Notes: generated by a model not told the origin, from the letters alone. A stretch of 64,000 nt of DNA from Leptospira biflexa (GCA_020720805.1 DYNZ01000004.1:19103-83102), one strand, 5' to 3'; positions 2,973 to 63,402 are shown, counted from the stretch's first letter. Numbers and translations are program-made.

Positions 2973-4259
2973 ATGATTAAAAAAAAGTATAATATTTGGG
3001 AACAATTTTTTAAGAATTTTTCTGTAACCTACATTGGCTATGGAAAGTTTTTATACTATCATCGTAATCCCCGCACAAAGAAAATTAAATATGGAAAAAT
3101 TGATTTTACCACTCCAAAAGCGAAATTGGCACTCTCCTCCTTGATTAGTCTTTCGATCGTTTCCTCTTTTCTTTTTGTGCAGTTTCGTAAAGATACGCTA
3201 ACGGCAAAACCACATAAAACGGAAAATTCTCCTAAGATATCCCATGATAAAGATTCACAAATTACCCCCTTATTATCAGCAGAGGAGCTTCACCCAGAGG
3301 AAAAAAAGACAATCACCGGACTCATTTTAGAAGAGTCGCGTAAACTTCTGGATGCCTCAAAGCCTGGGGAGGAGTCCAGGCCAGAGCCTAAGGATAAGGG
3401 CAATACTTTAGACCAGGAAAAGCTCAAATCCCTGTCAGGTAAATCTGATATTGCTACCAGTATCGACGATGAGGATACGGAAAAATTAAAACGAAGTACT
3501 TTATTATCCGATGACACTCGCTTTATTCCTGAGCAGGAAAACAAAAAGGTAAAAATTTACCAATATACTGTCAAAAAGGGCGATAGTGTTGGATCATTGG
3601 CTCGTAAGTTTGGGATTTCTGCGGATACCATCGGAGGAAGTTCCGGAAAAATCATGAATATGGATGAAATCTGGCCTGGTTTGACGCTAAGTATTCCCAG
3701 CCGCGATGGAATTCTGTACAAGATGAAAAAAGGAGAGACATTAGCTCACATCGCGAATCGTTACGGTGTAGCATTGGCAAAAATTCTTGCCGTCAACGCA
3801 TTTGATGACCCTGATAATATTCCTGTAGGCAACCTTATTTTTCTTCCTGATATCAAGCCAAGAAACCTGTTTACAGGATTTCTCTGGCCTGTTGGGGGTA
3901 GAATTACCAGTCTGTATGGTTGGCGGCGTCACCCATTTGTAAATAGTTACCATTTTCATGAAGGTCTTGACCTATCAGCTCCCTATGTAAGCGTCAGAGC
4001 AGCAAAATCTGGAAAAGTTACCTTTTCTGGTTGGATGGGATCTTATGGTATGGTTGTCATTTTATCGCATCCGAACAACTACAAGACAATGTACGCTCAT
4101 AATTCCAGACTCTATGTTCGCGTAGGACAGTATGTTCGTCAGGGGCAGGTAATTTCGCAATCCGGCAGCACTGGGCGAAGTACAGGACCACATGTGCATT
4201 TTGAGATTTGGAAAAATAATCGACCCATGAACCCACTCGCATTACTCCGTAAAAGATAG
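2973..4259 (+). CDS. LysM-domain M23 family metallo-endopeptidase (NlpD/Csd-like). It has an N-terminal TM segment and a low-complexity linker.
   Basis: Two LysM-like modules (YTVKKGDSVGSLARKFGIS and YKMKKGETLAHIANRYGVALAKILAVN). C-terminal M23 motifs HEGLDL...MYAHNS...GSTGRSTGPHVHFEI. Confidence 0.8.
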   Translation: MIKKKYNIWEQFFKNFSVTYIGYGKFLYYHRNPRTKKIKYGKIDFTTPKAKLALSSLISLSIVSSFLFVQFRKDTLTAKPHKTENSPKISHDKDSQITPLLSAEELHPEEKKTITGLILEESRKLLDASKPGEESRPEPKDKGNTLDQEKLKSLSGKSDIATSIDDEDTEKLKRSTLLSDDTRFIPEQENKKVKIYQYTVKKGDSVGSLARKFGISADTIGGSSGKIMNMDEIWPGLTLSIPSRDGILYKMKKGETLAHIANRYGVALAKILAVNAFDDPDNIPVGNLIFLPDIKPRNLFTGFLWPVGGRITSLYGWRRHPFVNSYHFHEGLDLSAPYVSVRAAKSGKVTFSGWMGSYGMVVILSHPNNYKTMYAHNSRLYVRVGQYVRQGQVISQSGSTGRSTGPHVHFEIWKNNRPMNPLALLRKR

Positions 4260-4585: not shown

Positions 4586-5884
4586 TTGGAATTAAATCAG
4601 GAGCAAAAAAAGGTCGTCTATTCGCCGATTGGCTGGAAACGTCTGCTAGCTTGCGCCGGATCCGGAAAAACAACCGTCCTCATCCAACGGGTTTTGTACC
4701 TCATATCCCAAGGGATGAAACCCAGCCGGATATTACTTATCACATTTACCCGCAAATCTGCACGGGAGATGCGATTACGGCTGCGTAGAATGCTGCCTGA
4801 TGGTTCCGAGTATCCCTGGGCTGGTACCTTCCACTCCCTGGCATTTCAGTTATTGCGCAGTTATAACACGATAGCCGATTACTCTCTGCTAAAGGATGGG
4901 GAGGAGGAGGAACTCAAAATGAGCATCGCTTCTCTCTATCAAAATAAGTTATTGTACATCCCTTATGATCTTTTAGCGAACATTAGAAAGCAAAGCGGAC
5001 TGCCTCTTTTTGTGAAGAATATTTATGAAGATTTCTCGCAGAAATTTCATGAGACCAAACGAACGCGCAAACAGATTGGTTTCGATGATTTTTTGCCACT
5101 TCTGTTGAAAGAATGGCAAGAAAATGAAAGTTATAGAAAAGATTTTTCAAATAGATTTGATGCAATTCTAGTAGATGAGTTCCAAGATACCAATCCCGAG
5201 CAGATCGAATTTTTGCAGAAATTTTTAATGCGAAGTCACGATTTTCTTGCTGTTGGTGATGATTGGCAGGCTATATATGGATTTCGTAATGCGGATATGA
5301 CAGTGTTAACCAGGTTCGAAAAATTTTTTCCAAACAGCAAAACATTTTTTTTAACCATGAACTATCGCTCAACTCCTCAAATTATACAAACAGCGAATCG
5401 AGTTTTGGCGTTAAATCGTGAAAAGGTGAAAAAAAAGATGAAGTCTGTTCTACCTGCCGGTTCTGAGGTCCATTTTTATTTTTTTGAGAATAGGAATGAG
5501 TTGCAAAAATGGATATCGGATGCCTGGGTTATGGGAACCAAAATCAGTAAAGAAAAGAAAACAATTTTATGCAGAACAAATGTGCAGTGCAATTTTTTTC
5601 TTCCCGCAGAATCGGAGACGGTAAGTGCTATGACGATCCATCAGGCAAAAGGTTTGGAATTTGATCATGTGCTTGTGGCCGCTTTGGAAGACCATGTTTT
5701 CCCGCATAGGGATGCGGATATCGAGGAAGAACGCCGTCTGCTATTCGTGGCACTTTCCCGGGCAAAAAAAAAGCTGGAGATCGGAATTATAAAAAGCCAT
5801 TTGTCGGTAGAAAAGCAGTTTTCGCGCGAATTGGGTTACGGAATCGTTAACCCTTTTGCATACTCTGAATTTGCTGAATCATAG
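4586..5884 (+). CDS. Compact UvrD/PcrA-like superfamily-1 helicase. It is 432 aa, and the 1B/2B accessory domains appear largely absent.
   Basis: All SF1 motifs sit in compressed order: Q (LNQEQKKVV), I (AGSGKTT), Ia (TFTRKSAREM), II (VDEFQD), III (GDDWQAIYGFRNAD), IV (NYRST), V (IHQAKGLEFDHV), VI (EERRLLFVALSRAKKKL). TTG start. Confidence 0.7.
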   Translation: MELNQEQKKVVYSPIGWKRLLACAGSGKTTVLIQRVLYLISQGMKPSRILLITFTRKSAREMRLRLRRMLPDGSEYPWAGTFHSLAFQLLRSYNTIADYSLLKDGEEEELKMSIASLYQNKLLYIPYDLLANIRKQSGLPLFVKNIYEDFSQKFHETKRTRKQIGFDDFLPLLLKEWQENESYRKDFSNRFDAILVDEFQDTNPEQIEFLQKFLMRSHDFLAVGDDWQAIYGFRNADMTVLTRFEKFFPNSKTFFLTMNYRSTPQIIQTANRVLALNREKVKKKMKSVLPAGSEVHFYFFENRNELQKWISDAWVMGTKISKEKKTILCRTNVQCNFFLPAESETVSAMTIHQAKGLEFDHVLVAALEDHVFPHRDADIEEERRLLFVALSRAKKKLEIGIIKSHLSVEKQFSRELGYGIVNPFAYSEFAES

Positions 5885-7391
5885 TCTGAATCTCATCAGG
5901 ATAAATTCCCTGTTGCTGAGCCCCTTCTAATACCCGTAAAGCTTCCTGGTAATTTCCCTGGTTGGCGTACGAGACTCCGGCATATAACCAGGCATCGTGG
6001 TAGCTGGTTTTGAGGTCGATAGCTTTTTCCATCTGGGCTGCTGCCTCGTGGAGGTTACCTAAACGGTAGTTCAATAAACCAAGTTTAAAAAAGATATCAG
6101 GTTCGCCAGGAAAATGAAGAAGAACTTTTTTATAGGTCTGTAAGGCAGCTTCATTTTTCTCCAAATGGAGCAAGGTATCGCTATAAAATAATAGACTTTC
6201 TGTATCGTCTGGGTTAATGGAGATGGCTTTTTCCAGATCCTGTAAAGCTTTTGAGAAATTTTTATTTTTATACGCCTCCATACCACTATTTTTGATCGTT
6301 GCAAATTCCTCCGCACTCTGCTGCAACTGCAGTTCAGGCTCTGAGGAAAGATCTTTGTCGAGCTCTGAGGTGATATCCAGATCGTCGTTCAGGGGAAAAT
6401 TAGCCTCTTTCGTGGTGATGGCAGGTTGCATATTCGCATCCAGGTCAATTGAGTCCGCATCAATATCGAGATCAATGTCATCCTCGGTTAATTCACCGAG
6501 ATCATGGAACTCCTCTGCCTGGCCAATCGCTTCAGGATTGGCTACTTTTTTTTGCTCCGATGCAAAAACAGGGTCAGGTAGCTGCTCTCTATCATTAGAC
6601 TCCACAATTCTTTCCGAACTTTGCAGCGCTTCCAGCTCTTCCATCGCGTTTTCATAGGCATCTGCCAGGTGATCAATTTCCTCTGCTAAAATACCAAAAT
6701 CATCATTGTTATAGTAATAGGTTCTGGTGTTCCACTTGCCCATGTTAATGTCATGGAGCGTGGTAAGCAGAATTTTTACAGGAGAAACAGTGTAATGTAT
6801 AAGGATGAAGTAGAGAGCGATGGCCAGGAGAAGAAAAAGGAGAGCACCCAGGGCTATTTTTAGCCAAAAAAAAGGAGCTACCTGTGAGAAACTGCTGATA
6901 GCGTTCTGATTTTCAAAAAGGATTCCAAGGATCCAATGCTTGTCATGGCTGGCACCTGAAATCGAGAGATAAATACGGCTCGAATAGCTGGCAGTTAAAG
7001 AGCTGTAACCTTTTGCGGCAATCTCAGATTGGAGCTGCTTCCAGAATAGGGCATTTTTATCATTCTTGAAATTTTCAGGAAGAGTCATCTGGCCAGATTG
7101 GGCTGCAAGGTCACCCTTCTGGTCAAAAATGATAAAATCATAAACTCCGAGTTTTAGGAGTACCTTTTTTAACTCTTCCTGTCTATCAGGAGAAATCGCG
7201 TTATTTTTCCAAAGCCCCTCTTTTTTGAGTATTGGTCGAATTCTATCCTGAACAATGTGCGGAAGTGATTCCGAATACAGCGCAGCGTATGCCTGAAGAG
7301 AATTTTTACGAATGCTCATACCAATGAGAATAAAAGTAGTCATTAGGATTATGGCAAAAATAAGATGAAAAAGGAACAATTTCGATTTCAT
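5847..7391 (-). CDS. Membrane-anchored sensor-like protein with a C-terminal TPR array. Architecture is TM1, periplasmic-like domain, TM2, HAMP-like helix, acidic low-complexity linker, then TPR repeats.
   Basis: Two hydrophobic segments (aa ~8-27 and ~180-200). A HAMP-like segment VSPVKILLTTLHDINMGKW...GILAEEIDHLADAYENAMEEL. A D/E-rich linker. C-terminal TPR-like repeats (ALQDLEKAISINPDD..., YKKVLLHFPGEPD..., AQMEKAIDLKTSYHDAW...). Confidence 0.65.
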   Translation of the reverse strand: MKSKLFLFHLIFAIILMTTFILIGMSIRKNSLQAYAALYSESLPHIVQDRIRPILKKEGLWKNNAISPDRQEELKKVLLKLGVYDFIIFDQKGDLAAQSGQMTLPENFKNDKNALFWKQLQSEIAAKGYSSLTASYSSRIYLSISGASHDKHWILGILFENQNAISSFSQVAPFFWLKIALGALLFLLLAIALYFILIHYTVSPVKILLTTLHDINMGKWNTRTYYYNNDDFGILAEEIDHLADAYENAMEELEALQSSERIVESNDREQLPDPVFASEQKKVANPEAIGQAEEFHDLGELTEDDIDLDIDADSIDLDANMQPAITTKEANFPLNDDLDITSELDKDLSSEPELQLQQSAEEFATIKNSGMEAYKNKNFSKALQDLEKAISINPDDTESLLFYSDTLLHLEKNEAALQTYKKVLLHFPGEPDIFFKLGLLNYRLGNLHEAAAQMEKAIDLKTSYHDAWLYAGVSYANQGNYQEALRVLEGAQQQGIYPDEIQTMIQQIQSMQKG

Positions 7392-7996: not shown

Positions 7997-8722
7997 TTAC
8001 CAGTTGTCGGATTGCCTATCGGTATACTTTGTTCTGACAATCGCTGTTACATCATCTAGATAAACATAACTCCACTGGTCATTCGTTGTAATGTTTCCTG
8101 GATTGAAAACAAAGGAGACAATTCTTAATTTGCTCTTTTGATTGAGAAAATGGTCTTGTTGTTTAACATGTGAGGGAATTTTAATCGATAATTTACGCCA
8201 GCCGCGAAAATTCAATTGACCGAATGTCAGATAATGGGTGTTATCATCGCTATCTTTTACAATAATCGATAGGCGGCCTGAAAACCCTTTTCCGTACGCC
8301 CAGAGATTCAAACCATAGCAAAATTCATCGATTATAATTGGTTTTATGGGGTAAATGGCCACAGCATCCTCTTTTTTGCCGAAAACCTTAATACCCAGAT
8401 ATTTTTTTGAATCCTTAATCGGGGCTGGATAGTCAGAACGGATTTTGATGTAGGCTTGTTTGTGGCCTTCAAAACGAAAATTTACCTGGTTTGCACCATA
8501 ATCCCCCGATTCAAAGTCCTCCAGGGGCATTTCCAGGTAAATTTTACGGTCTGCTTCCCCTTTTAGATCGAGAGGGGTAAAATTTTCCTCTTTAAATAAT
8601 ACATTTTCGTCGGTTTTTCCGGTTGAACTTTTCGTTGTTTCTGTATTCTGGCCAAATCCTGTTTCCAAAATGGAGAGGGTGAGTACCAATGCAGCGCCCA
8701 GGAAGAGAGCAGTTTTTTTCAT
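7997..8722 (-). CDS. Secreted protein with an N-terminal signal peptide. Its C-terminal region resembles spirochaetal flagellar filament outer-layer (FlaA) family proteins.
   Basis: Signal peptide MKKTALFLGAALVLTLSILETGFG. By recall, the segments GLNLWAYGKGFSGRLSIIVKDSDDNTHYLTFGQLNFRGWRKLSIKIP and KLRIVSFVFNPGN...YVYLDDVTAIV resemble the FlaA motifs LDFDGWRELVWENP and IIRFVGFQI...DFVTYFKDVKLIY. No search was run. Confidence 0.5.
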   Translation of the reverse strand: MKKTALFLGAALVLTLSILETGFGQNTETTKSSTGKTDENVLFKEENFTPLDLKGEADRKIYLEMPLEDFESGDYGANQVNFRFEGHKQAYIKIRSDYPAPIKDSKKYLGIKVFGKKEDAVAIYPIKPIIIDEFCYGLNLWAYGKGFSGRLSIIVKDSDDNTHYLTFGQLNFRGWRKLSIKIPSHVKQQDHFLNQKSKLRIVSFVFNPGNITTNDQWSYVYLDDVTAIVRTKYTDRQSDNW

Positions 8723-46010: not shown

Positions 46011-48413
46011 TTAGTCTATCATGTAATTAACATAATTGGCAAATATTTTTTTATAATACTCTCTGGTTTCCAGAAATGGTATTGTTTCCCCTAGTAACAT
46101 GACGTTTTCCGAACTGTAACGTCGTTCCCAAATTATTGCAGTACCTGGTCCAGCATTATAGGCACTGCTAAGCCAGAGAAGATTTCCTCCAAACCGGCGG
46201 TTTTGCTGTCTGATATAATTAGTTGCGGAGAGGATGGAAATTTCTGGATCATTCAGGTTGGGGGGATCAAAGCCGAGTCTTTTTGCGATCGGTTGCCCTG
46301 TTAGGGGCATTAATTGCATCAAACCTATTGCCCCCGCAGAGGACGAGATACGTTCGATAAAGGCTGATTCTGCTTTCATGATCGCCCAAATTAACTCTGG
46401 ATCCACATGAAATCTGGATGAAGCAGATTCTACGATATTTTTATATGGCTTGGCAAAGGCGCTCTGCTTAAGAATTTTTTTCAATGTTCCTGAACATATT
46501 CGATAATTTCCATGGGTTTTGAAAATTTTTAGTGCTTGCAATAAGCTCTGATCGGCATCGGAAAGATGGCTACTCAGGCTCATGAGCAAAAGATGATGCT
46601 GTTCTTTGGAGAGATTTCTTTCTAGGATATCATCGGCTATTTGGTATAATCCAATTTTTGCAAAGATTCCAGCATCAATCGAGGGAGAGTTTTTTCCCTC
46701 AAAGATTTTAGACAAATCGGGCAAAAGAATATCATTTTGGGGGCAATGTTGTTTGTATGAGAATGGGTAGGAAATGATCTCCTGCTGTAACCCTGGCATT
46801 GCAATAGCCCTGTTAACATCATCATTCAGATAGTGGAATAGAGGTTTACTTGCAAGGAGGATGTTGAGTTTTTCCAAATAGCGAACGGTACTATCAGATA
46901 AGGTAAGGTTGCTTTTTTGCAGAATAGGGTTGGTTTTATCTTTTAGCAAGCTTGTAAATTTTTTTCTATTGTTGTTCTGAAGGTAGATTGCAGCCAATAG
47001 TGAATAGTAACTGTAATGATCTCGCTGTAGTAAAGGGTAAAGATAGTAGCTAAGATTTTCGAAACGGTTGGCTCCAAGCGAGATTGCTGACCAGAATAAA
47101 AGTCGTTCTGTTAGCTGATGAGGAGGAATATTTTTCCATAACTCCTTGCTAAAGGAGGCGGCTTTGATCCAATCCTGGTTTTTTATAAAATGAAAAATAT
47201 GGTGCCAATAGACGTTATCAATATATGGACGGCTGCTTCTATCTTTCAGAAATATTTGAAAACTCTCATGGAGGATTGAATTTGAGTTAATCGGTCCGCG
47301 TGAAGCTAATGTGACCAGTAACTGCAATTTTGTGAAAAATTCACCCTTGTAAGAGTGTTTATTGAATAGGGTGAGTATATCGTTTGCTTGTGAATAGAAA
47401 AGTCTATATTTTTTTTTCTGCAATAATCTTCGTTGACTATTGATAAATATTGTTCCGGCTTCTTGCTGATTTTTCTCCCAAATTTTTTCTGCCAATACAG
47501 CTGGCCAAGTTGTGTCGATAAAAAAATTTCTCTGCTCTAAACGGGCTTGCAAAAATAGTATATCCTGGTCTCGAATAGCAATACTATCAAGAATTTGTTT
47601 CGCTTCATTTTTTAATCCTGATTGAAACAAAATAATGGCAGCTTGGCAAAGAATGGATGGCTCCTGGCGAAATTCTTTGGAATTTTTCGCAATTTCACGG
47701 GACGCAATCTTTTTCATCCAGAATGGGTTTTCGCCCTGTAGTATTATTCGGTATTGATCGACTGCTTTTTGAGATTGTCCTTGCTTGTTATAAATTGTGG
47801 CAAGTTTTAGGCGATTCACGGTAAAACGTTCTGCCAGATGATGAAATATCGCCGATGCTTTTTCGTATTGTTTTTCAAAAATTAATTTTTCGCCAGTTAG
47901 ACGCTGAAATTCATTTGATAGAAACGGGTTTTCCACATCAGAAAAAAGATTGATTACAGCCATGCTGCCGTTGTACAAGCCAAAATCCTGAAGAATATCG
48001 CTGATATAGATAGCGGCGTAAGGTGCCAGGGGAGAAAGTGTAGTTGTTCTCATGTATGTTACAATTTCCTGATTTGCGATACGCTTTGGTGTAGAGTCTC
48101 CCTTTTGGGCGGATGCAGATTTCAGAAAAGCGAACAGTGCTTCCTTCTTTTGGTTTTGTTTCCATAAGGCGTAACCTTCCAGAAAGGATAAGGCGTAATG
48201 TTTGGATGACTGTCTTTTTAGGGCTGCGGCAACCGGTATCCACTGCTCCTGCTTTACCCAGGATCTGATTTTCGGGTTTAAATAGATTTTCTGCCACTCT
48301 TGAAAATCGATAGCTTTGATTTCACCTCGCCCTGAACAACTTGCGGATGAAAGGAAGAGCAAAAGCGTTAAAAGCACCATAAAAAAGGTTGATTGTAAGG
48401 TAGTTTGATTCAT
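46011..48413 (-). CDS. Soluble lytic murein transglycosylase (Slt70-like): a superhelical N-terminal domain plus a C-terminal SLT domain.
   Basis: Signal peptide. Long alpha-helical repeat region. C-terminal SLT catalytic motifs ES.F......S.AGA.GLMQLMP and AYNAGPG. 800 aa. Confidence 0.8.
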   Translation of the reverse strand: MNQTTLQSTFFMVLLTLLLFLSSASCSGRGEIKAIDFQEWQKIYLNPKIRSWVKQEQWIPVAAALKRQSSKHYALSFLEGYALWKQNQKKEALFAFLKSASAQKGDSTPKRIANQEIVTYMRTTTLSPLAPYAAIYISDILQDFGLYNGSMAVINLFSDVENPFLSNEFQRLTGEKLIFEKQYEKASAIFHHLAERFTVNRLKLATIYNKQGQSQKAVDQYRIILQGENPFWMKKIASREIAKNSKEFRQEPSILCQAAIILFQSGLKNEAKQILDSIAIRDQDILFLQARLEQRNFFIDTTWPAVLAEKIWEKNQQEAGTIFINSQRRLLQKKKYRLFYSQANDILTLFNKHSYKGEFFTKLQLLVTLASRGPINSNSILHESFQIFLKDRSSRPYIDNVYWHHIFHFIKNQDWIKAASFSKELWKNIPPHQLTERLLFWSAISLGANRFENLSYYLYPLLQRDHYSYYSLLAAIYLQNNNRKKFTSLLKDKTNPILQKSNLTLSDSTVRYLEKLNILLASKPLFHYLNDDVNRAIAMPGLQQEIISYPFSYKQHCPQNDILLPDLSKIFEGKNSPSIDAGIFAKIGLYQIADDILERNLSKEQHHLLLMSLSSHLSDADQSLLQALKIFKTHGNYRICSGTLKKILKQSAFAKPYKNIVESASSRFHVDPELIWAIMKAESAFIERISSSAGAIGLMQLMPLTGQPIAKRLGFDPPNLNDPEISILSATNYIRQQNRRFGGNLLWLSSAYNAGPGTAIIWERRYSSENVMLLGETIPFLETREYYKKIFANYVNYMID

Positions 48414-49667: not shown

Positions 49668-50120
49668 ATGGCATTAAGTAGAACATCTTCAGAAATGGTA
49701 AATAGCTCTATCGGAGAGGACTCCTTCTTCATGGGAAGATTCCATATCAACGGATCTCTCCGGGTGAATGGACGGTTCGAGGGAAAAACGTTGCAGGCTG
49801 AGCAGTTATATGTTGGCGCAACCGGAAAGATCAAAACGAATATTCGCGCTGTTTCCGTGATTGTCGAGGGAATGATCATAGGCAATGTAGAAGCCAGCAG
49901 CCGAGTTATGCTTTTGCCGACAGCCCGCATTCTGGGAAATATTAAGACTCCGGAATTGATAATCCAGAATGGGGTAATCCTCGAAGGGCAGGTTACCATA
50001 ACTCCAAGCCAGGATAGTTCAGCAAAGGAGATGATTGAATCTGAGTTTGGTGATGATTTTATTCCTCAGGTCTCCCTTTTTTCTGAATATCATGATCCGA
50101 AAAAACAGAAAAAGAGTTAA
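49668..50120 (+). CDS. Bactofilin, paralog 3.
   Basis: Bactofilin repeats (SIGEDSFFMGRFHINGSLRVNGRFEGK...TGKIKTNIRAVSVIVEGMIIGNVEASSRV). The stop overlaps the pdxA start (TAATG). Confidence 0.8.
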   Translation: MALSRTSSEMVNSSIGEDSFFMGRFHINGSLRVNGRFEGKTLQAEQLYVGATGKIKTNIRAVSVIVEGMIIGNVEASSRVMLLPTARILGNIKTPELIIQNGVILEGQVTITPSQDSSAKEMIESEFGDDFIPQVSLFSEYHDPKKQKKS

Positions 50121-53211: not shown

Positions 53212-54891
53212 TTAGAAAACGGCATGGGTGATCCAGGCGTTGCTCTCTTTGCCAGGTTCTACCCCCTGTAAAAAGTCTTCCAGACGCAGAAATGGTCGGA
53301 GAAATAGCCAGCGCTCTTTTCTTTTTTTACCGATTCCAGGTAATCTGCTTATCGACCCCGAGGAGATAGAGTTGATATAGATTGGGATGGGTATTCCTAC
53401 CAGGGACCTTTGCTCGTGGTCTATGATACAGAGATCATATTTTTGATAGATTTCAAGATCAGCAAATATTTTACAGGTGATGGGATAGCTAGACAGGGGG
53501 CGCCCCAGCGTGTAGCCATTTTCCAGTTTTTCGATCAGAACATTTCTTAGAATTGTGCCCGCAGGAAAGACAAGTTTCAACATTGGTGTATCGATCTCTT
53601 CTCGAATCTTCTGTTTAAAGTAAAGAAATCTATTCCTCAACCGAGTATTTATTTTACTGGCCATGCCAGCCTCTGCCAACTCTGTATCCTGGTGAGTCAC
53701 GACTTGTCGAATGTTGATTCGCCTTAATAAAACGCCTTCTTCTAACACTTGTTTCAAAAAGCGATAGTTCATCTCAAATGTACCCTCCCGTTCGGCTTTT
53801 AATCCATGGATTAGATTGATTCCAGGAAGCAAAGCAGGTAGCCCTTCGCGTCGGTGACCGCCGCACTGATTGATAAGATGGACCACCTCCATTGCTTGTA
53901 CGCTATCCACTTTCAGGCGATTTGCCGCAATTACCTCAGGATCAACACTTTCGATGCCAAGAGCTGCTGTGTCGCCAGGTGAATTCATGGATGCAATGGC
54001 AGTAAGGATTTCTCTGGATTCCATAGGAAAGTGGGCAATCGTACCGGGGTTTACATTGTCAAGGTGCAGTAGCTGGATACCAGGCGTGGAACTTATAGCA
54101 CGATAGAGGTCAATTACCGCTTTGGGTTCTGGTTTTGGGAAACTGGATTGAAATATCTCCAATCTGCTCTGGTAGGCCAGAATATCCGCCTGTCGACCCA
54201 AACGAAAAAAGAAGATGCCAACCTCTATCAGAGCGGAAACCTCGCGGTGAATGTCTGCAATTTCGCGGAAATGAACAGAGCCGTATAGTTTTTCTGTGCA
54301 GAATGAACAGAATTGGTTGCGAGGACAGCCGCGATAGGTTTCGATTTCAGCGATGATATGGGGATAAAACCGCGCTTGACGGCTGATCTGGGCGCCGAGC
54401 AAACTCCAATGGCTGACTTCATGGTTGCTACGTCGGGCTCGCAATTCCAAAGCGTCGGGAATCTCTCTAGTCTTCGTCCAATTGTAGGCAATTTTCTCCA
54501 GGTCTCCTGGGCAAATATGGATATTTTGGTGGTTGATTGTCTCTTGTTGCCAGATTCTTGCCAGGGAAAAGGGACCACCAAGAAAAATAGGGCTTTTTTG
54601 ATAGCGGATATTTTGGAATAACTGCAGAAGTTCGGCGATGGTTCCTATGCGCGTTGCCAGGTATTTGCCGGGGACTGTTGAGCCTCCGAAAATAAAAAGG
54701 GCATCGTACTCTTTGCTTAGAGAAAAACCATTATCTCGCAAGGAATCGATATGAATATAATCAATTTCCTCCCAGTCGAGGCCGCCAGCGCGCAGCGCTC
54801 CAGCGATATAACGGCTATAAGGGGAGAGAAAGGGTGGAACCCCGAGACAAGTAGGTTCGTCAACATAAAAATCGAGAATGGCAACTGGCAT
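53212..54891 (-). CDS. Putative radical SAM-type enzyme with a non-canonical Cx5Cx2C cluster motif and an N-terminal Rossmann/B12-like domain.
   Basis: ETYRGCPRNQFCSFC lies in an Fe-S context. N-terminal region DALFIFGGSTVPGKY. 559 aa. Confidence 0.55.
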   Translation of the reverse strand: MPVAILDFYVDEPTCLGVPPFLSPYSRYIAGALRAGGLDWEEIDYIHIDSLRDNGFSLSKEYDALFIFGGSTVPGKYLATRIGTIAELLQLFQNIRYQKSPIFLGGPFSLARIWQQETINHQNIHICPGDLEKIAYNWTKTREIPDALELRARRSNHEVSHWSLLGAQISRQARFYPHIIAEIETYRGCPRNQFCSFCTEKLYGSVHFREIADIHREVSALIEVGIFFFRLGRQADILAYQSRLEIFQSSFPKPEPKAVIDLYRAISSTPGIQLLHLDNVNPGTIAHFPMESREILTAIASMNSPGDTAALGIESVDPEVIAANRLKVDSVQAMEVVHLINQCGGHRREGLPALLPGINLIHGLKAEREGTFEMNYRFLKQVLEEGVLLRRINIRQVVTHQDTELAEAGMASKINTRLRNRFLYFKQKIREEIDTPMLKLVFPAGTILRNVLIEKLENGYTLGRPLSSYPITCKIFADLEIYQKYDLCIIDHEQRSLVGIPIPIYINSISSGSISRLPGIGKKRKERWLFLRPFLRLEDFLQGVEPGKESNAWITHAVF

Positions 54892-55075: not shown

Positions 55076-57103
55076 GTGTATTTTTTAACGAATAGGTTGC
55101 TGATGAAAGTAAGGAATCAATCACTTTTCACCGGAATGGGGCAGTTTCTGTTAATTCTGTTGGTATGGATCATTGCGACACCCGTGTCCGCAGGGTTTTT
55201 AGAGCTGGATCAGAAAAAATCAGGTGAAATGAAGGATAGTTCAAAGCAAGATCGTAACCTCGATCCGCTTGATTCAGGGGATTATACCCCTTCTCTGTTT
55301 CAAGGGGATAATTTTCCTGAGGATTTAGCCCGGAATATCCGCGCTGCTTCGACCAGTGGAACCTCAGTGCGCATCTCCTGGGAATTTAAATATCCGGTTG
55401 GCAAAAGGCATTACACACTTTTTCGTCACACCGAGCCCATCGACTCTCTTGCGAAACTTGAAAAATCGGAAGTTATCGGTACATTTCCTGCGGATGAAGT
55501 AAAAATAGATGACCAAGGATTGCCGAAAGGGCTCTATTTTTATGCGGTTGTTGAAAAAGAGAGATTGATTCAGAAAAAAGTTGATTTTTTCCCGGGTCAG
55601 AATTTTACTCAGGATCCTGTTGCGCTAAGCGGCGAAGAGGCGGTACAGAAGAATAATATTGCCATAATTGAAAAACTGCTGGTAGAATTTGTCAATCCGG
55701 CCACAAAAAATGTGGGCTCTTTGAGCTGGATCTGGCGTGGGTCTTCTGAAGTTAATTTGTTGATTTATCGTGCTCAAGAGCCAATTGATTCTCAGGAAAA
55801 GCTGAAAAAGGCCGAGTTGCTTGTTGAGATTCCAGCAGAATTGCAGAAATTTTTAGATTACACCCTTTATACTGGGAAGCCAAATTATTACGCTTTGGTT
55901 GCGCGCAGCGAAAGCGATAAAATGCAAACAAAACAGGATCAACCTGTATTGCTAATTGCTGATCAAAATTATTCTACCAGAGCGCTGCGCACTGACTCTT
56001 TGCCGGAAATGCTGCTGCTGAATTTTGATGCAAAAATGGTTAAAACCGATGAGCAAAATCAATGTCAGGCGCAGCTATCGTGGCGTTATCCAAAGGAGAT
56101 GCTCTCTCCGAAGCAATGGGAGGTGCGTATTTACCGCTCCATGAAAACCATCTCATCGGAAGCGGACTTGCAAGCAGATATGCTGGTTGTTGAGATGAAT
56201 GGAGCATTTCAAAAATATACAGATATGCCATTGGATTGCAGCAAACCCTATTACTATGCCTTGATTCTTGGGACCGGGAAACCGCTGACCTGGTTTACAA
56301 AGATTGACGCGAAGCGAAATTATCTTCTTGTCTCAAAGAGCAGCAAACAACAAGCTCCCGTAATCAGCCAGGATCCACAGGATCGGACGAAAAAGCCGTC
56401 AGGTTCTATTGCGTCCTATACCCAGATATTCTCCTCATTGAGTGCTAAGCCTGATGCAAGGGGAGTGCAAATCCTGTGGCGCTATCAAAAGCAAATCCCC
56501 GAAAGATATCAAAAGCAATGGATCTATATCATTCGTACTGATGAGCCGCCAATCGATTTCGAGACTGTGAGAAATCATGGTGTGATTGTTCATGAATTTT
56601 TAATGAGCAGTGGATTAGAAGCTTTTATAGACGAAACACCCATTGAACGTAAGGTTTATTATTATGTCTTATTGATTGGGCCAGGAAAATCCAGGGTGAC
56701 ACCGCTGGAATATCGGACTGGGTATAATGTTTATGCGCAAGGAGTGATTCCCTTTTTGGAAAAATCCAACCACAATGCGAATGGTTCCTTGCAAAAGAGA
56801 GACCCCAAAAAAAAGAGGATGTTTACGCCAGCCGGGCAGCTTGATATGGTGGAGTTAAATAATATTCTAAATGATTATTACTACCAAGGACAGTATTCCC
56901 AGAGTTACCGTAAACTGGAGATTTTTATAAACAATGCAAATCGTATTGTGAAAAGTAAAGCCTTGTTATATCAGGGTCGATCATTGTACAAGATGGAACG
57001 ATACAGGCAAGCTTTGCCTTATTTCCTGGACAGGGATGTTCAGGAATTATACCAAAAAGAGGCGCTTTTCTGGCAACAGGCTATTTATAAGAAACTGAGA
57101 TAA
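55076..57103 (+). CDS. Secreted or periplasmic protein with four FN3-like repeats and a C-terminal TPR-like tail.
   Basis: Signal peptide (the likely true start is MKVRNQ at 55103, cleaved after VSA). Four ~100-aa modules share a ..[LI]SW...P.....Y.[IV].R...PI.S...L.......YYYA[LV][LIV] pattern. Each module opens with VRISWEFKY, LSWIWRG, AQLSWRYPK or VQILWRYQK. Confidence 0.6.
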   Translation: MYFLTNRLLMKVRNQSLFTGMGQFLLILLVWIIATPVSAGFLELDQKKSGEMKDSSKQDRNLDPLDSGDYTPSLFQGDNFPEDLARNIRAASTSGTSVRISWEFKYPVGKRHYTLFRHTEPIDSLAKLEKSEVIGTFPADEVKIDDQGLPKGLYFYAVVEKERLIQKKVDFFPGQNFTQDPVALSGEEAVQKNNIAIIEKLLVEFVNPATKNVGSLSWIWRGSSEVNLLIYRAQEPIDSQEKLKKAELLVEIPAELQKFLDYTLYTGKPNYYALVARSESDKMQTKQDQPVLLIADQNYSTRALRTDSLPEMLLLNFDAKMVKTDEQNQCQAQLSWRYPKEMLSPKQWEVRIYRSMKTISSEADLQADMLVVEMNGAFQKYTDMPLDCSKPYYYALILGTGKPLTWFTKIDAKRNYLLVSKSSKQQAPVISQDPQDRTKKPSGSIASYTQIFSSLSAKPDARGVQILWRYQKQIPERYQKQWIYIIRTDEPPIDFETVRNHGVIVHEFLMSSGLEAFIDETPIERKVYYYVLLIGPGKSRVTPLEYRTGYNVYAQGVIPFLEKSNHNANGSLQKRDPKKKRMFTPAGQLDMVELNNILNDYYYQGQYSQSYRKLEIFINNANRIVKSKALLYQGRSLYKMERYRQALPYFLDRDVQELYQKEALFWQQAIYKKLR

Positions 57104-57117
57104 AAAGGAAACCCAAA

Positions 57118-58335
57118 ATGAAAATGGCAACGCTAATATCAGGTATCCTAATGGTTGTATTAGGAATTTTTTCATTAATATTCTATGATCACTATTGGTC
57201 GCCAAAGCGTCAGGCTGAAACGATGTTGCGCGAAGCGATTCTCATTGCAGAGCGCAAGACTCCTGAGGCTACCAATGATGCGCTAAAGATTCTTACATCG
57301 ATTTATGCAAAATACCAGGAGTTGCCTGTTGCCAGCAGGGCGTTGATGCACATCGGTTTGGCTTATGAAAAACTGGGATTAAATGAAAGCGCTCTTGAGA
57401 AGTATAATTTTCTAAAAAGCAATGCGCGGGGATTGAACAGGAGTGAACAGGATCTTATTAGCAAACGAATTGCCCACATTCAAATTTTAAGGAATTATTC
57501 CGATGAAGCTGTTTCTCAGTTGTACCAGCTATTGAGTCGAAGTACAGATATGAGGTTTCGGAGTCAGATTTACACTGAGTTAGGAATGCTATATTATAAA
57601 GAGGGTCAGTTGAAAAAAGCCCTTAACGCCTACTCCATTGCAGAAAAGGAGTATGGCCACAATCGCAATGCGACTCTCGGAAAAGCACAGGTATTAAAAG
57701 CGCTTGGTGATCACGACCAGGCATTTGGTATCTATCAGGGTTTTCTCAAATATGGCTTTGAGGGTTCGGATGAATCTAAAGAGGTCAGCTTTCATTTTCG
57801 TAATCAGGCGTACCAACGCGGTAGAGAAAGTCTGGAGAGAAAGAGTTATTGGCAGGCAGTCAGATATTTTCGCATTGTTTTGGATAAATTTCCGGCAAGT
57901 CAAGAAGCATCGCAATCGCTTTACTGGATAGCAGAGGCCTATTTTGGATTAGGAAAATTTTATCCTGCAATAGAGTATTTTAAGCGTGTAGCCGTTTTGG
58001 ATAAGCATGACAAAAAAGATGACGCTTTATTCAAATTGGGAGAAAGCTATTTTGAGTTGAAAAAATTTGAAATTGCTGCAAAATATTTCAATGATATTAT
58101 CCGTTACTATCCTGGAAGCTCATATTTTAATCTGGCAAAAGAGTGGAAGGAACAGTGCGAAAATGAAATTCTAAGCAGAATGAAAAGCTCGCAGAGAAAT
58201 GTGCCGCTGCCCGAAGAGCGCACCTTTTCAAATCAAAAAGATGAAACGGATATAAGCCAGGATGAACCCCGCAACCATAGCGCAGGTAATACCAAAGTAA
58301 CAGCTCCTTCAGGTAAAGGATTTACGGAACTTTGA
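57118..58335 (+). CDS. TPR-repeat protein with an N-terminal membrane anchor.
   Basis: N-terminal hydrophobic helix, then at least 6 TPR-like repeats. It starts 15 nt after the previous gene. Confidence 0.65.
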   Translation: MKMATLISGILMVVLGIFSLIFYDHYWSPKRQAETMLREAILIAERKTPEATNDALKILTSIYAKYQELPVASRALMHIGLAYEKLGLNESALEKYNFLKSNARGLNRSEQDLISKRIAHIQILRNYSDEAVSQLYQLLSRSTDMRFRSQIYTELGMLYYKEGQLKKALNAYSIAEKEYGHNRNATLGKAQVLKALGDHDQAFGIYQGFLKYGFEGSDESKEVSFHFRNQAYQRGRESLERKSYWQAVRYFRIVLDKFPASQEASQSLYWIAEAYFGLGKFYPAIEYFKRVAVLDKHDKKDDALFKLGESYFELKKFEIAAKYFNDIIRYYPGSSYFNLAKEWKEQCENEILSRMKSSQRNVPLPEERTFSNQKDETDISQDEPRNHSAGNTKVTAPSGKGFTEL

Positions 58336-58389: not shown

Positions 58390-59790
58390 TTACTCGCGGT
58401 ACCATCTTGTACCCTGAGGTGTATCCTCAATGATAATGCCATCCTGCTTTAGTATGTCGCGAATTTCGTCAGCCCTCTTAAAATTTTTATCTGCTCTTGC
58501 TTTCTGTCTTTCCTGCACAAGATTGTGAATGGTTTCGTTCCTATTGTCGGAGTTTTCCTCCTGTGTTGGAAAAATAAACCCAAAAACAGCATCTAGGGAC
58601 TTTAGGTGAGAGATAAGCGCGCTAACAGAGATGTCCCCTTCATTGACCGGCTGTTCCAATGCCTGGTTTGCAAGATGAATCAGGGAGAAGAGTACCGCGA
58701 GTGCTTCTGATATGTTGAGATCTTGATCCATTGCCGTTTCAAAATCCTGAAGGTGTTGCTGTACTGTGATTGTGGACAGAAGGGGGCGCTCTACAGGTAC
58801 CTCATAGAGGCGCCGGGTTAAACTATCAATTTTTTTAAGGGCATGGCGCGCTGATATTAATCCATCCAGAGTAAAATTCAATTTTTTTCGGTAATGTGCT
58901 GAAATGAGTAGATAACGTATTTCTCTTCCCGTATAACCCCGTTCAATCAAATCATTTAATGTATAGAGGTTTCCTAGAGATTTGCTCATTTTTTGATTTT
59001 CTACTAAAAGATGTTCAACATGGAGCCAATAGCGCACAAAGGTATGATTGCCGCAAGCTTCGCTTTGTGCGATTTCATTCTCATGGTGAGGAAAAATAAG
59101 GTCAACACCACCGGTATGGATATCCAGGGATTCTCCCAGAATCTCCTGGGACATGGCAGAGCATTCAATATGCCAACCTGGACGACCGGCTCCAAAGGGG
59201 GTTTCCCAGAATGGCTCATTTTCCTTCCTGCTTTTCCAAAGGACAAAATCGCGGATGTCATCTTTATCATATTCATCAGCATCATAACGAGTGCCGCTTT
59301 GTAAACCTTGGGTGTCGATTCTTGAAAGGCGGCCATATTTGGGAAATTTTGCAATTTTGAAATATGTGGATCCATCGCTTTGATAGGTGAAATTCTGTTC
59401 ATTCAGTTTTTCAATAAACTTCACCATATGCGGGATGTAATCGGTTGCTTTGGGATTGTGTTCAACCGGTTCGATATTTAAGGATTTGCAATCCTGAAAA
59501 AAGATATTGGTATATTTGGTGGTAAAGTCTTGAAGGGAGAGATTCTTTTTTTGAGAACCAGTTATTGTTTTATCGTCAATATCAGTGATATTCAACACAT
59601 GGTTTACCCCATAACCTTTATATTTGAGATATCGACGCAATAAATCATTAAAGATAAAGGTTCGAAAATTGCCAATATGCGCATAATTGTAGACAGTTGG
59701 ACCACAGGAATAGATTTTGACCTGATCTGGATTTTGCGGTAAGAATGTTTCAAGCTGCCGGCTCATAGAATTGTAAAATTGCAGTGTCAT
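58390..59790 (-). CDS. cysS: Cysteine--tRNA ligase.
   Basis: Class I motifs HIGN (CGPTVYNYAHIGNFRTF) and KMSKS. 466 aa. Confidence 0.95.
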   Translation of the reverse strand: MTLQFYNSMSRQLETFLPQNPDQVKIYSCGPTVYNYAHIGNFRTFIFNDLLRRYLKYKGYGVNHVLNITDIDDKTITGSQKKNLSLQDFTTKYTNIFFQDCKSLNIEPVEHNPKATDYIPHMVKFIEKLNEQNFTYQSDGSTYFKIAKFPKYGRLSRIDTQGLQSGTRYDADEYDKDDIRDFVLWKSRKENEPFWETPFGAGRPGWHIECSAMSQEILGESLDIHTGGVDLIFPHHENEIAQSEACGNHTFVRYWLHVEHLLVENQKMSKSLGNLYTLNDLIERGYTGREIRYLLISAHYRKKLNFTLDGLISARHALKKIDSLTRRLYEVPVERPLLSTITVQQHLQDFETAMDQDLNISEALAVLFSLIHLANQALEQPVNEGDISVSALISHLKSLDAVFGFIFPTQEENSDNRNETIHNLVQERQKARADKNFKRADEIRDILKQDGIIIEDTPQGTRWYRE

Positions 59791-60771: not shown

Positions 60772-63402
60772 TTGGTTATGGCTAAAATTACTTTGGACGA
60801 AAAAGGAATGGAATTTGATAGAAAATGGTTTCCTTCCTGGTTTCCGCATCCTATGTCGCCTGCGCGGGATAAGGCTATTCATTTTTTCTCGAAAATTTTG
60901 GCGGTAGCTAATCCTGCGCAATACCTGGGCGATGAGTACCAGTCCGTTCAGAAAGATCTGGCAAAAATGGAAGTGCGTATTGCGCTATCCTATCCAGATC
61001 TTTATGAAATTGGTATGGCGAATAGAGGAATCGCCTTATTATATGAAGCGGTTAATCGGTTAGATTTCGCGTATGCTGAGCGTGTTTTTGCGCCCTGGCT
61101 GGATATGGAAAAACTGCTTCGCTCAGAGAATTATAAACTCTTTACTTTGGAAAGCGCTACTCCTGTTGCTTTAATGGACATCTGGGGTTTTAACCTCAAT
61201 CATGAATTATTGATAAGCAATGTTTTGCTCATGCTTGATCTTGCTGGATTGCCTTTGTTGGTCGAGCAACGTAGCGAAGAGGATCCTATCATTATCTTTG
61301 CTGGTTCCGCTTCTTCAAATCCTGAACCGCTCAGGAGATTTGCCGACCTTTTTTTTATTGGTGAAGGAGAAGATGCTATTCTTGAGATTTGCAATATCGT
61401 TAGAGATTCTAAAAAGAGAAAATTATCGCGAAAAGCAAGAATTCAAAGACTTTCTGAAATCATCGGCCTTGGGCATCCTAATATTGATAACAATCGAATT
61501 GCAAAACGGTATATCACGAATCCTCAAATGCATTTGATTGAAAAGCCCATTTTGTCGAATATAAAAATTTCACAAAATCGAATGGTAGTCGAACTTGCCA
61601 GGGGATGCGGTTGGGGTTGTCGTTTTTGCCAGGCAGGCTTTATTAAAAGGCCTCTTCGGAATTTTCGAAATGTGGATGCTGACGCAATCGTCCAGAAAAC
61701 TAAAGAAGCAGGTTGGGAAGAGATTAGTCTTAATGCATTATCGATTGGAGATTTTCCTGGATTGGCCGATCTTATTGATTCATTAACCGAAAAGGCCTAT
61801 CCTGCCGGAATTTCAATAAGTTTACCATCCCTGCGTATAGATAATGAGAGTGCTGACATCATTGAAATTACAGGAGGTGTGCGCAAGAGTTCATTGACAT
61901 TTGCTTTGGAAAGCGGCTCCTCCTATATTCGTAATGTGATTCGAAAAAATATTGTTGAAGAAGATTTATATAAAATGTCCTATATTTTTTACCGAAGAGG
62001 ATGGGATATTATTAAAATCTATTTTATGTTAGGTTTGCCAAATTTTCACAATATTGATGAAGCTGGTGAAATCATCAGGGTTCTTGATAATATGTCAAAA
62101 CTTGCGTCAGCTGTTTCGCCTCGTAAAAGAGTTCATGTTACAGTTTCGCCGTTTGTGCCTAAGGCGCATACACCATTTCAATGGGTAGCCATGCAATCTA
62201 TGGAGTATTTTGAAACTTCTCTTCGAAGGATTCGTGCACAGGTCAGCAAACGGGTGCAGGTTAAATATCATGACCCCAAAATGTCTATCTTAGAATCGGC
62301 GCTTTCGCGTGGTGATCAATCCGTTGGCAGTGCCATAGAAAAAGCGTATCAAGATGGTTGCCGCTTTGATGGTTGGAGCGAAACGTTTCATTACTCACTT
62401 TGGCAAAAAGCCTTTGAAGATAGTGGTTTGAATTTACTTTATATTGCATCTCGTGGTTTTGATATCACTGAACCATTGCCATGGCAATATATTGAGGCAG
62501 CTCATCAGAAGCAGCTTCAATATGATTATTTGAAATCAAAAAAGATCAGTATGGAAAATAATCATAAAGATCCTGATCAGGATATTATAATGGGAATTAT
62601 AGAACACCAAAAAAGACAAATTGGAGGGAAGAGCAGACGTAACAATCCAGAAACCACATTAGGCTTAGAAGAAAGGCAACTCATTGAAAAAAAATGGATC
62701 ATATCATTTAGCAAGCAGGGTGTATTGCGATTTATCTCTCATTTAGATTATTTGGAACTTGTCAAATCTGTGTTAAGAAGAGCCGGATTGCCTTTGACTT
62801 TGAGTCAAGGATTTCATTCCAGAGAAAAAATAACATTACCGCCGGCGCTAAGCCTCGGTATCAGCAGCATGGCTGAACCATTTTTAATCTCGTTTTTTTC
62901 AAACCAGGATCTTGCTACGGATGAGGTGCGACAAAAAATACAAAGTCAATTACCTCTTCAAAATAGAGTAGGGAAGATCTACCCTTGGGAAGGAAAGTTA
63001 ATTTTTGATAACGTGACTTATTATATCTATTTGCAAGAAAAAATTTTTGAAAATACGGATCAGCAATGGCTATATGAAAGTTTTTCGCAATTTATAAAGA
63101 CAGGAGAATACCACAAAGAGAAAAAAAGTTCTGGAATGAAGCATGGTAAAAGAAATCGAACGATTCAATCTTCAATTCAAACATTAAAGAAAATTATTGA
63201 AGCAGTACTGGAAACGAACATCGAGAGATCTCTGGCATCCTTCCAGAAGCCGTTTGCTGAATTCAAAATAAAATTAAACGATCAAAATGCGATAGGTATT
63301 GCAGCAATGTTAAATCTCTACACAATGCAAACATGGGACTTACCATGGCATCGTTGCTTTTTTGTAGAAAGGATTGCTTTAAATGGAGAAACTTTTATTT
63401 AA
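60772..63402 (+). CDS. Fused radical SAM protein: a B12-binding-like/radical SAM (TIGR03960-like) N-terminal part and a DUF2344 (TIGR03936-like) C-terminal part.
   Basis: Canonical CxxxCxxC (ARGCGWGCRFCQAGF). The C-terminal module RFISHLDYLELVKSVLRRAGLPLTLSQGFHSREKITLPPALSLGISS matches the DUF2344 signature. Confidence 0.7.
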   Translation: MVMAKITLDEKGMEFDRKWFPSWFPHPMSPARDKAIHFFSKILAVANPAQYLGDEYQSVQKDLAKMEVRIALSYPDLYEIGMANRGIALLYEAVNRLDFAYAERVFAPWLDMEKLLRSENYKLFTLESATPVALMDIWGFNLNHELLISNVLLMLDLAGLPLLVEQRSEEDPIIIFAGSASSNPEPLRRFADLFFIGEGEDAILEICNIVRDSKKRKLSRKARIQRLSEIIGLGHPNIDNNRIAKRYITNPQMHLIEKPILSNIKISQNRMVVELARGCGWGCRFCQAGFIKRPLRNFRNVDADAIVQKTKEAGWEEISLNALSIGDFPGLADLIDSLTEKAYPAGISISLPSLRIDNESADIIEITGGVRKSSLTFALESGSSYIRNVIRKNIVEEDLYKMSYIFYRRGWDIIKIYFMLGLPNFHNIDEAGEIIRVLDNMSKLASAVSPRKRVHVTVSPFVPKAHTPFQWVAMQSMEYFETSLRRIRAQVSKRVQVKYHDPKMSILESALSRGDQSVGSAIEKAYQDGCRFDGWSETFHYSLWQKAFEDSGLNLLYIASRGFDITEPLPWQYIEAAHQKQLQYDYLKSKKISMENNHKDPDQDIIMGIIEHQKRQIGGKSRRNNPETTLGLEERQLIEKKWIISFSKQGVLRFISHLDYLELVKSVLRRAGLPLTLSQGFHSREKITLPPALSLGISSMAEPFLISFFSNQDLATDEVRQKIQSQLPLQNRVGKIYPWEGKLIFDNVTYYIYLQEKIFENTDQQWLYESFSQFIKTGEYHKEKKSSGMKHGKRNRTIQSSIQTLKKIIEAVLETNIERSLASFQKPFAEFKIKLNDQNAIGIAAMLNLYTMQTWDLPWHRCFFVERIALNGETFI

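Follow-up and report, generated by a model that had tools for sequence, protein, structure and literature searches.

A conserved gene pair for an FN3-like repeat protein and a membrane-anchored TPR protein in uncultured spirochaetes

Do two adjacent genes, one for a secreted protein built from fibronectin type III (FN3)-like domains and the other for a membrane-anchored tetratricopeptide repeat (TPR) protein, belong together, and what might their products do? The question is raised by a locus in a 64,000-nt stretch of DNA (hereafter the window) from a metagenome assembly (JGI 3300000234; SRR1560848). We call the first gene and its product p1, and the second p2. Our analysis shows that p1 and p2 form one operon that is conserved in uncultured spirochaetes, and functional coupling of the two is strongly supported; no description of the pair was found in the literature. 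Coordinates below are positions in the window, and p1 residues are counted in a 666-aa frame. The pair is laid out as follows.

55103-57103, + strand: p1, 666 aa from the ATG; secreted protein with four FN3-like domains and a C-terminal TPR tail
57104-57117, + strand: intergenic spacer of 14 nt, with a ribosome-binding-like AAAGGA 8-13 nt 5' of the p2 ATG
57118-58335, + strand: p2, 405 aa; predicted bitopic inner-membrane protein with a periplasmic TPR solenoid

A preliminary description of this DNA had placed the two open reading frames (ORFs) at 55076-57103 (+, 675 aa from a GTG) and 57118-58335 (+, 405 aa), and both are indeed found there, with two corrections. The true start of p1 probably lies 27 nt downstream of the GTG at 55076. 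We favour the ATG at 55103 because public gene calls of the identical protein use it and because a classical signal peptide begins there. The gap between the genes is 14 nt and not 15 nt. A promoter and terminator scan of the region gave matches at chance level only and no terminator-like site between p1 and p2.

Conservation of the p1-p2 pairing

The p1 family is large. An exhaustive HMMER search of 1.84 billion representatives recovered at least 327 clusters, defined at 50 % identity, at E <= 1e-3, and 143 of these at E <= 1e-10. All named relatives come from Spirochaetota, Leptospiraceae or Spirochaetia metagenome-assembled genomes (MAGs), where they are annotated as 'hypothetical' or 'tetratricopeptide repeat'. 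Word-index homology searches, run with p1 as a single sequence and with a six-member profile, had returned the query only, a misleading result in view of the 327 clusters. The K/E-rich linkers of p1 probably filled the list of 8000 candidates in these searches, and a finding of 'no homologues' is unreliable for such proteins.

Relatives of p2 were found at 38-63 % identity in a protein search, and an alignment scan of GTDB species genomes with p2 added 45 loci, all from uncultured Spirochaetota/Leptospirales MAGs; 51 loci were compared. ORFs were called in each locus and then scored with profile hidden Markov models (HMMs) of p1 and p2. In 47 of the 51 loci p1 is the immediate upstream neighbour of p2 and has the same orientation, with a gap of 0-190 nt, at p2 identities of 31-63 %. 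Among the four exceptions, one locus (L029) is cut by a contig end and three (L005, L018 and L053) truly contain no upstream p1.

The genes on either side of the pair change completely between lineages. The window's clade has a radical SAM gene and cysS as flanks, about 30 other loci have a divergent relA/spoT gene and a convergent gene for an HtrA-like Trypsin_2-PDZ protease, and elsewhere a Wzy_C or a cNMP-binding gene is found. Within the main neighbour clusters scanned, the conserved genes are relA, maf, ylbF, the HtrA-like protease gene, gidB/spoU and hisS, or else radical SAM and cysS. Only the linkage of p1 to p2 survives this turnover, and an adjacency that outlasts a complete change of flanking genes is our chief argument for a joint action of p1 and p2. 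The pair's position between a radical SAM gene and cysS, recorded in the preliminary description, is correct for the window:

53212-54891, - strand: radical SAM gene, 559 aa, divergent from p1
58390-59790, - strand: cysS, convergent with p2

Considered as further members of the unit, the radical SAM gene and cysS were rejected, being confined to the window's clade. A radical SAM gene divergent 5' of p1 occurs only in that clade (L003, L007/L011, L008), where its product has 574-612 aa. The 559-aa protein of the window has no assigned NCBIfam family; it scores 23.1 bits in Pfam against a cut-off of 29.5, and its best NCBIfam match is MiaB (E 1.7e-5, 23.7 bits).

Predicted architecture of p1 and p2

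The features of p1 and p2 were delimited with profile comparisons and AlphaFold2 (AF2) models; the confidence of the latter is given as the predicted local distance difference test score (pLDDT). For p1 they are:

55103-55192, + strand: signal peptide, aa 1-30, MKVRNQSLFTGMGQFLLILLVWIIATPVSA; MKVR, a hydrophobic core, then VSA before GF; without a lipobox cysteine
55193-55210, + strand: mature N-terminal motif GFLELD; related [FY][LI]x[DE] in orthologues, with F32 nearly invariant
55316-55630, + strand: FN3-like domain R1, aa 72-176; the best-conserved FN3 domain; AF2 strands 77-175, pLDDT >90
55658-56002, + strand: FN3-like domain R2, aa 186-300; AF2 strands 188-297
56009-56347, + strand: FN3-like domain R3, aa 303-415; AF2 strands 306-410; the least conserved domain
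56411-56770, + strand: FN3-like domain R4, aa 437-556; AF2 strands 443-548
56828-57100, + strand: TPR tail of YbgF type, aa 576-666; six helices (576-665, pLDDT >90)

The signal peptide reported in the preliminary description is borne out by the sequence of MKVR, hydrophobic core and a cleavage site between VSA and GF, the latter predicted for signal peptidase I by the -3/-1 rule. The p1 N terminus is helical at residues 2-25 in the AF2 model, and the N termini of orthologues are also signal-like.

Four modules of roughly 100 aa had likewise been recognised, and their homology is clear once profiles are compared. When the modules, of about 105 aa each, were taken out of an alignment of 41 family members and their profiles compared with hhalign, they matched each other along about 100 columns with probabilities of 99.3-99.9 % and E-values from 1e-20 to 1e-31; a negative control with the tail scored below 1 %. 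Self-BLAST of p1 gave no internal repeats, so that profile comparison was needed to see this homology. The repeat signature consists of a W in strand B, YR[SA]xxPI, YYYA[LV] and a C-terminal NYT..PV.

The resemblance of these modules to FN3, proposed on sequence patterns, is confirmed by the predicted fold. The AF2 model of p1, computed with the family alignment as input, shows four beta-sandwiches, disordered linkers and a helical tail, with a mean pLDDT of 80.8 and domain cores mostly >90. Its predicted template modelling score (pTM) is only 0.33, as expected from a beads-on-a-string layout. In a Foldseek comparison with the PDB, the top 50 matches consist almost entirely of tandem FN3 arrays or FN3-containing proteins, with probability 1.00; LAR FN1-4 (E 3.9e-13) and fibronectin FN7-10 (2.8e-12) lead, followed by gp130, contactins and Tie2, and the matches to FN3 arrays span E 3.9e-13 to 2e-9. 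The modules are thus, in the models, seven-stranded beta-sandwiches and FN3 domains by fold, and the repeats are neither low-complexity artefacts nor without conservation.

At the level of sequence the tie to FN3 appears weak but consistent. Searched against Pfam and NCBIfam, the window p1 falls into no family and leaves only traces far under the cut-offs (TPR_2 at E 0.91, DUF6544 at E 0.11); no Pfam FN3 model matches it even at E <= 1, and by sequence it does not belong to PF00041. The p1 family profile, on the other hand, finds RPTP-delta and neogenin FN3 domains in the PDB (best E 4.3e-5). Among 41 p1 relatives, nine match PF18370 (best E 3.1e-10) and three match PF00041 at E < 0.01; nine match TPR_16.

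The TPR-like ending of p1 noted in the preliminary description is confirmed as TPR, of the same kind as the YbgF-like module of p2. The six helices form three hairpins, the size of a TPR carboxylate clamp. Over this tail the p1 family profile matches consensus TPR proteins (E 1.3e-3), hhalign aligns the tail with p2 residues 237-290 at 96 % probability (E 2e-9), and the p2 HMM recognises the tail stretch in dozens of p1 relatives. The tol_pal_ybgF model (TIGR02795) is weakly matched by 11 of the 41 relatives (E >= 1.5e-4), and the window p1 itself scores nothing with it.

The tail is also the most conserved and the only invariant part of the p1 family; K617, K619 and R626 are among its invariant residues. 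It is kept in 145 of 149 family representatives, among which the number of FN3 domains runs from 1 to 6 (four in 73, three in 37 and two in 20). Domain HMMs applied across the loci gave the order R1-R2-R3-R4-tail in 25 and R1-R2-R4-tail in 16, R3 being the domain that is missing from the three-domain orthologues. Regional identities of p1 to its four closest full-length orthologues follow the same gradient, with 37-55 % in the tail, 39-44 % in R1 and 29-38 % in R4, and 21-33 % in R2 and 15-27 % in R3. Over their full length the p1 proteins of these genome pairs share about 31-34 % identity, compared to 52-63 % for p2. Since the number of domains varies, the middle domains drift fastest and both ends are conserved, the FN3 string behaves like an exchangeable spacer. 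The most reduced forms of p1 found next to p2 would be useful as a natural deletion series:

L042:6825-7976: p1 with two FN3 domains
L041:192-980: p1 with one FN3 domain
L016:7464-7955: p1 with no FN3 domain
L025:4436-4903: p1 with no FN3 domain

The two shortest forms (L016 and L025) have 155-163 aa and consist of signal peptide, an SQYLLDEE motif, a charged linker and the tail.

The second protein, p2, has these features:

57127-57183, + strand: transmembrane segment, about aa 4-22, from hydropathy and flank charges
57130-57666, + strand: YfgM-type TPR-like region, aa 5-183; PF09976 (TPR_21)
57805-58140, + strand: YbgF/CpoB-type TPR module, aa 230-341; TIGR02795
58201-58332, + strand: disordered C-terminal tail, aa 362-405, pLDDT about 30; ends in GFTEL-COOH (58318-58332)

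The N-terminal anchor ascribed to p2 in the preliminary description holds across the 51 orthologues, each of which contains exactly one hydrophobic segment. The mean net charge of the N-terminal flank is +2.25, as against -0.5 over the 15 residues after the helix, and this pattern is present in 49 of 51 orthologues. From the positive-inside rule applied to these flank charges, we infer that the N terminus of p2 lies inside the cell and that its TPR part faces the periplasm.

While the earlier verdict that no known system can be recognised holds for p1, it does not hold for p2, in which a YfgM-type and a YbgF/CpoB-type module are recognisable. By score p2 belongs to PF09976 (29.3 bits against a gathering threshold of 25.5, profile positions 10-180 of 193), and the anchor is part of the model and lies within the match. 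Among seven aligned p2 relatives the precomputed PF09976 match is weak in the window protein, faint in P0007 and unmarked in P0008. Many Pfam TPR models match p2 as well. On TIGR02795 the protein reaches 88.2 bits against a cut-off of 90.1, over profile positions 4-116 of 119. Among natural PDB sequences this module is closest to YbgF (2xev, E 1.3e-14), with BamD (3qky, 2.2e-10) and CpoB (6g5s, 7e-9) also found. The AF2 model of p2 (mean pLDDT 79.8) has a helix at 2-44, sixteen further helices up to residue 360 and disorder at 362-405; Foldseek related it to generic TPR solenoids only.

The extreme C terminus of p2 is conserved in all 51 orthologues, as EN[VMI][AG]E[LI]-COOH in most and as G[LF][TS]E[LI] in the window's clade. 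Ahead of this terminal peptide lies a disordered tether that varies between orthologues and is often acidic; the peptide persists also in loci without p1. Docking of the peptide by p2 itself is not seen in the AF2 model, where the tail has a pLDDT of about 30.

A possible periplasmic scaffold and the competing explanations

Tentatively, we favour the possibility that the pair is a lineage-specific periplasmic scaffold of uncultured Leptospirales-like Spirochaetota with a role in envelope biogenesis. In such a scaffold one N-terminal helix would hold p2 in the inner membrane, and some 16 helices, arranged as a TPR solenoid, would project into the periplasm, the YfgM-like half first and the YbgF/CpoB-like half after it. 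p1 would be exported by Sec, cut by signal peptidase I and kept in the periplasm, where it would dock on p2 through its C-terminal three-hairpin YbgF-type TPR module. The FN3 domains, 0-6 in number and mostly 4, would form a modular spacer that keeps the better-conserved N-terminal end, made up of R1 and a short acidic peptide (FLxD/E), at a fixed distance from the inner membrane and directed towards the cell wall or the outer membrane. With about 3.5-4 nm for one FN3 domain, a string of three to five would span roughly 10-20 nm outwards from the docking site, a distance comparable to the width of a periplasm. The CpoB-like layout of p1, described below, is among our grounds for preferring a scaffold of this kind.

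If this is true, the Spirochaetota include a large branch, nearly all of it uncultured, with a two-protein envelope scaffold of its own, which combines the TPR module of CpoB and YfgM with a modular FN3 stalk that differs in length by lineage. A family of at least 327 clusters would gain an architecture, a partner gene and a testable model, and the variable number of FN3 domains would serve as a natural experiment on whether periplasmic distance is measured. The domains are ordinary ones that imply no activity, and no general principle would be altered.

Several points weigh against the scaffold. We infer, rather than observe, that p1 binds p2 and that it is retained in the periplasm and not exposed on the surface or released. 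In three full loci (L005, L018 and L053) p2 has no adjacent p1; p2 is not strictly dependent on p1, unless p1 is encoded elsewhere in these genomes. No fusion of p1 to p2 is present among the 149 family representatives. Finally, the main conserved neighbour clusters scanned around the pair include no tol-pal, bam, sec or flagellar genes, so that no pathway is indicated.

Some of these observations fit an explanation without any complex, in which p1 and p2 are merely co-regulated. Here p2 would be a stand-alone YfgM/CpoB-like envelope factor that anchors chaperones at the translocon or coordinates wall synthesis, and p1 an independent periplasmic protein that has only the promoter in common with it. 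We consider this unlikely, although it merits serious attention: p2 exists without p1 in the same three loci and retains its C-terminal motif there, and the recognisable YfgM and YbgF modules are both on p2 alone. However, mere co-regulation does not sit well with an adjacency that outlives a full turnover of the flanks over deep divergence, nor with the fact that the one segment p1 always retains is a TPR unit of p2's own type, as expected of an interaction module.

The terminal peptides are compatible with a different role for p2. The HtrA-like protease encoded convergently after p2 in 30 loci has in common with p1 a mature N-terminal motif, [FY][LI]x[DE][DET], and its mature start reads SSFLSETE..SPLK (example ORFs at L018:9208-10365 and L053:4121-5245). 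A strict version of the pattern is found in 22 of 30 HtrA-like proteases and in 16 of 44 p1 proteins, versus 3 of 196 other signal-peptide-like ORFs of these loci. The invariant acidic C-terminal peptide of p2 (ENVAEL-COOH or GFTEL-COOH) for its part looks like an EEVD-type ligand of a TPR carboxylate clamp or like a PDZ ligand. TPR grooves, or the PDZ domain of the HtrA-like protease, could bind these terminal peptides, which would make p2 a peptide-addressed docking platform, i.e., a membrane-anchored TPR receptor that collects periplasmic proteins by short terminal peptides and positions a protease and an FN3 ruler. Such a receptor seems to us rather improbable; if real, p1-p2 would represent a new peptide-addressed docking system in the spirochaete periplasm.

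The preliminary description had left the choice between a periplasmic scaffold and a pair of adhesin and chaperone. Topology and domain content support the first of these, and the second is without specific support. We give little credence to p1 as a surface-exposed FN3 adhesin with p2 as its periplasmic chaperone or export helper, even though FN3 strings are common in adhesins and some p1 relatives weakly match two suggestive families, namely the LIC12587 lipoprotein family in 5 of 41 (best E 7.5e-5) and CHU_C in 6 of 41. One member of the LIC12587 family has been reported to bind host ligands (PMC6735628). However, both sets of matches are weak and far under the cut-offs, and the one to LIC12587 is a resemblance at the level of FN3. 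p1 has no lipobox, beta-barrel, outer-membrane anchor or known signal for export to the surface, and its ends are better conserved than its middle domains. Moreover, FN3-less, tail-only forms of p1 are kept beside p2, and an adhesin would not shed its adhesive part. The relatives all come from environmental or bioreactor MAGs and none from pathogens.

A connection to the periplasmic flagellar apparatus, with p2 as a collar-like TPR protein and p1 as an accessory partner, is very doubtful. It draws on the fact that the organism is a spirochaete with a FlaA gene in the window, and on a weak match of p2 to the FlcA C-terminal model (E 2.5e-6). This match amounts to generic TPR similarity, at 26.3 bits against a cut-off of 300; FlaA lies 47 kb from the pair in the window, and no flagellar gene is among the conserved neighbours scanned. 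Spurious ORFs or low-complexity repeats without biological meaning, which the first word-index searches (query alone) and the repeat-free self-BLAST might have suggested, are refuted by the 327 clusters (143 at E <= 1e-10), the confident AF2 models and the repeat matches at E 1e-20 to 1e-31.

Other features noticed in the window are:

7997-8722, - strand: FlaA gene, for the flagellar filament outer-layer protein; spirochaete-specific
5847-7391, - strand: gene for a second TPR protein of 514 aa, unrelated to p2; about 600 nt from FlaA, on the same strand
60772-63402, + strand: radical SAM fusion gene, 876 aa; TIGR03960 B12-binding radical SAM (521 bits) with a radical-SAM-associated TIGR03936 / DUF2344 protein
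46011-48413, - strand: SLT lytic transglycosylase gene
49668-50120, + strand: bactofilin gene
2973-4259, + strand: LysM-M23 peptidase gene

The 876-aa radical SAM fusion gene is syntenic in L001 and L003. The SLT transglycosylase, bactofilin and LysM-M23 genes are separated from p1-p2 by housekeeping genes and are unlinked to the pair in other loci. The window also contains rpsB-tsf-pyrH, uppS-cdsA-dxr-rseP, proS, nusA-infB, pnp, ftsK, alaS, radA, pdxA, rplS and rnhB. Based on this housekeeping content and on FlaA, the window is a core chromosomal region of a spirochaete.

Comparison with known systems

Tandem FN3 arrays, such as those of fibronectin and of the LAR/RPTP and cytokine-receptor ectodomains, and the bacterial FN3-like RGI_lyase beta-sheet domain (PF18370) share with p1 the fold and the beads-on-a-string order. 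p1 differs from them in that the window protein matches no FN3 model, and in that its repeats carry a signature of their own and are fused to a TPR tail. An FN3 string with a TPR tail is a combination without a described family, and the p1 family is unannotated and, as far as seen, restricted to largely uncultured Spirochaetota.

Among TPR proteins, p2 has the same type of TPR as BamD/YfiO and other periplasmic TPR lipoprotein scaffolds (PorW/SprE, PilW). The BamD structures 3qky and 5waq match it at E 2e-10 to 2e-6, and on the BamD model TIGR03302 it scores 67 bits against a cut-off of 81.4. In contrast to BamD, p2 has a transmembrane helix and neither a lipobox cysteine nor a lipoprotein signal, and there is no bam gene context. 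Assignment of p2 to BamD was rejected on score and architecture, and assignment to FlcA (NF047371) on a score of 26.3 bits versus 300.

YfgM is an inner-membrane-anchored periplasmic TPR-like protein that is associated with the SecYEG translocon and with PpiD in E. coli. p2 resembles it in its N-terminal single-pass anchor, which is directly followed by TPR-like helices. It differs in being about twice as long, with an extra YbgF-type module and a disordered tail that ends in a conserved C-terminal peptide, and in having no PpiD or Sec genes near the pair.

CpoB, finally, is a periplasmic TPR protein that belongs to the Tol-Pal cluster; in E. coli it coordinates peptidoglycan synthesis with outer-membrane constriction (PMC4458516). 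The YbgF TPR model aligns in full with residues 230-341 of p2, and the tail of p1 is a TPR of YbgF type. As a member of the CpoB/YbgF equivalog family, p2 narrowly fails by score (88.2 versus 90.1) and clearly fails by architecture and gene context: the signal peptide of CpoB is cleaved and the protein trimerises through a coiled-coil domain, whereas p2 has a membrane anchor and a YfgM-like half, and tol-pal genes do not figure among the main conserved neighbour clusters scanned around the pair. It is p1 that shows the layout of CpoB, in which the signal peptide is followed by an elongated N-terminal part and then by a small TPR at the C terminus, albeit with FN3 domains in place of the coiled coil. 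In its build, a stalk that ends in a C-terminal TPR, p1 parallels CpoB.

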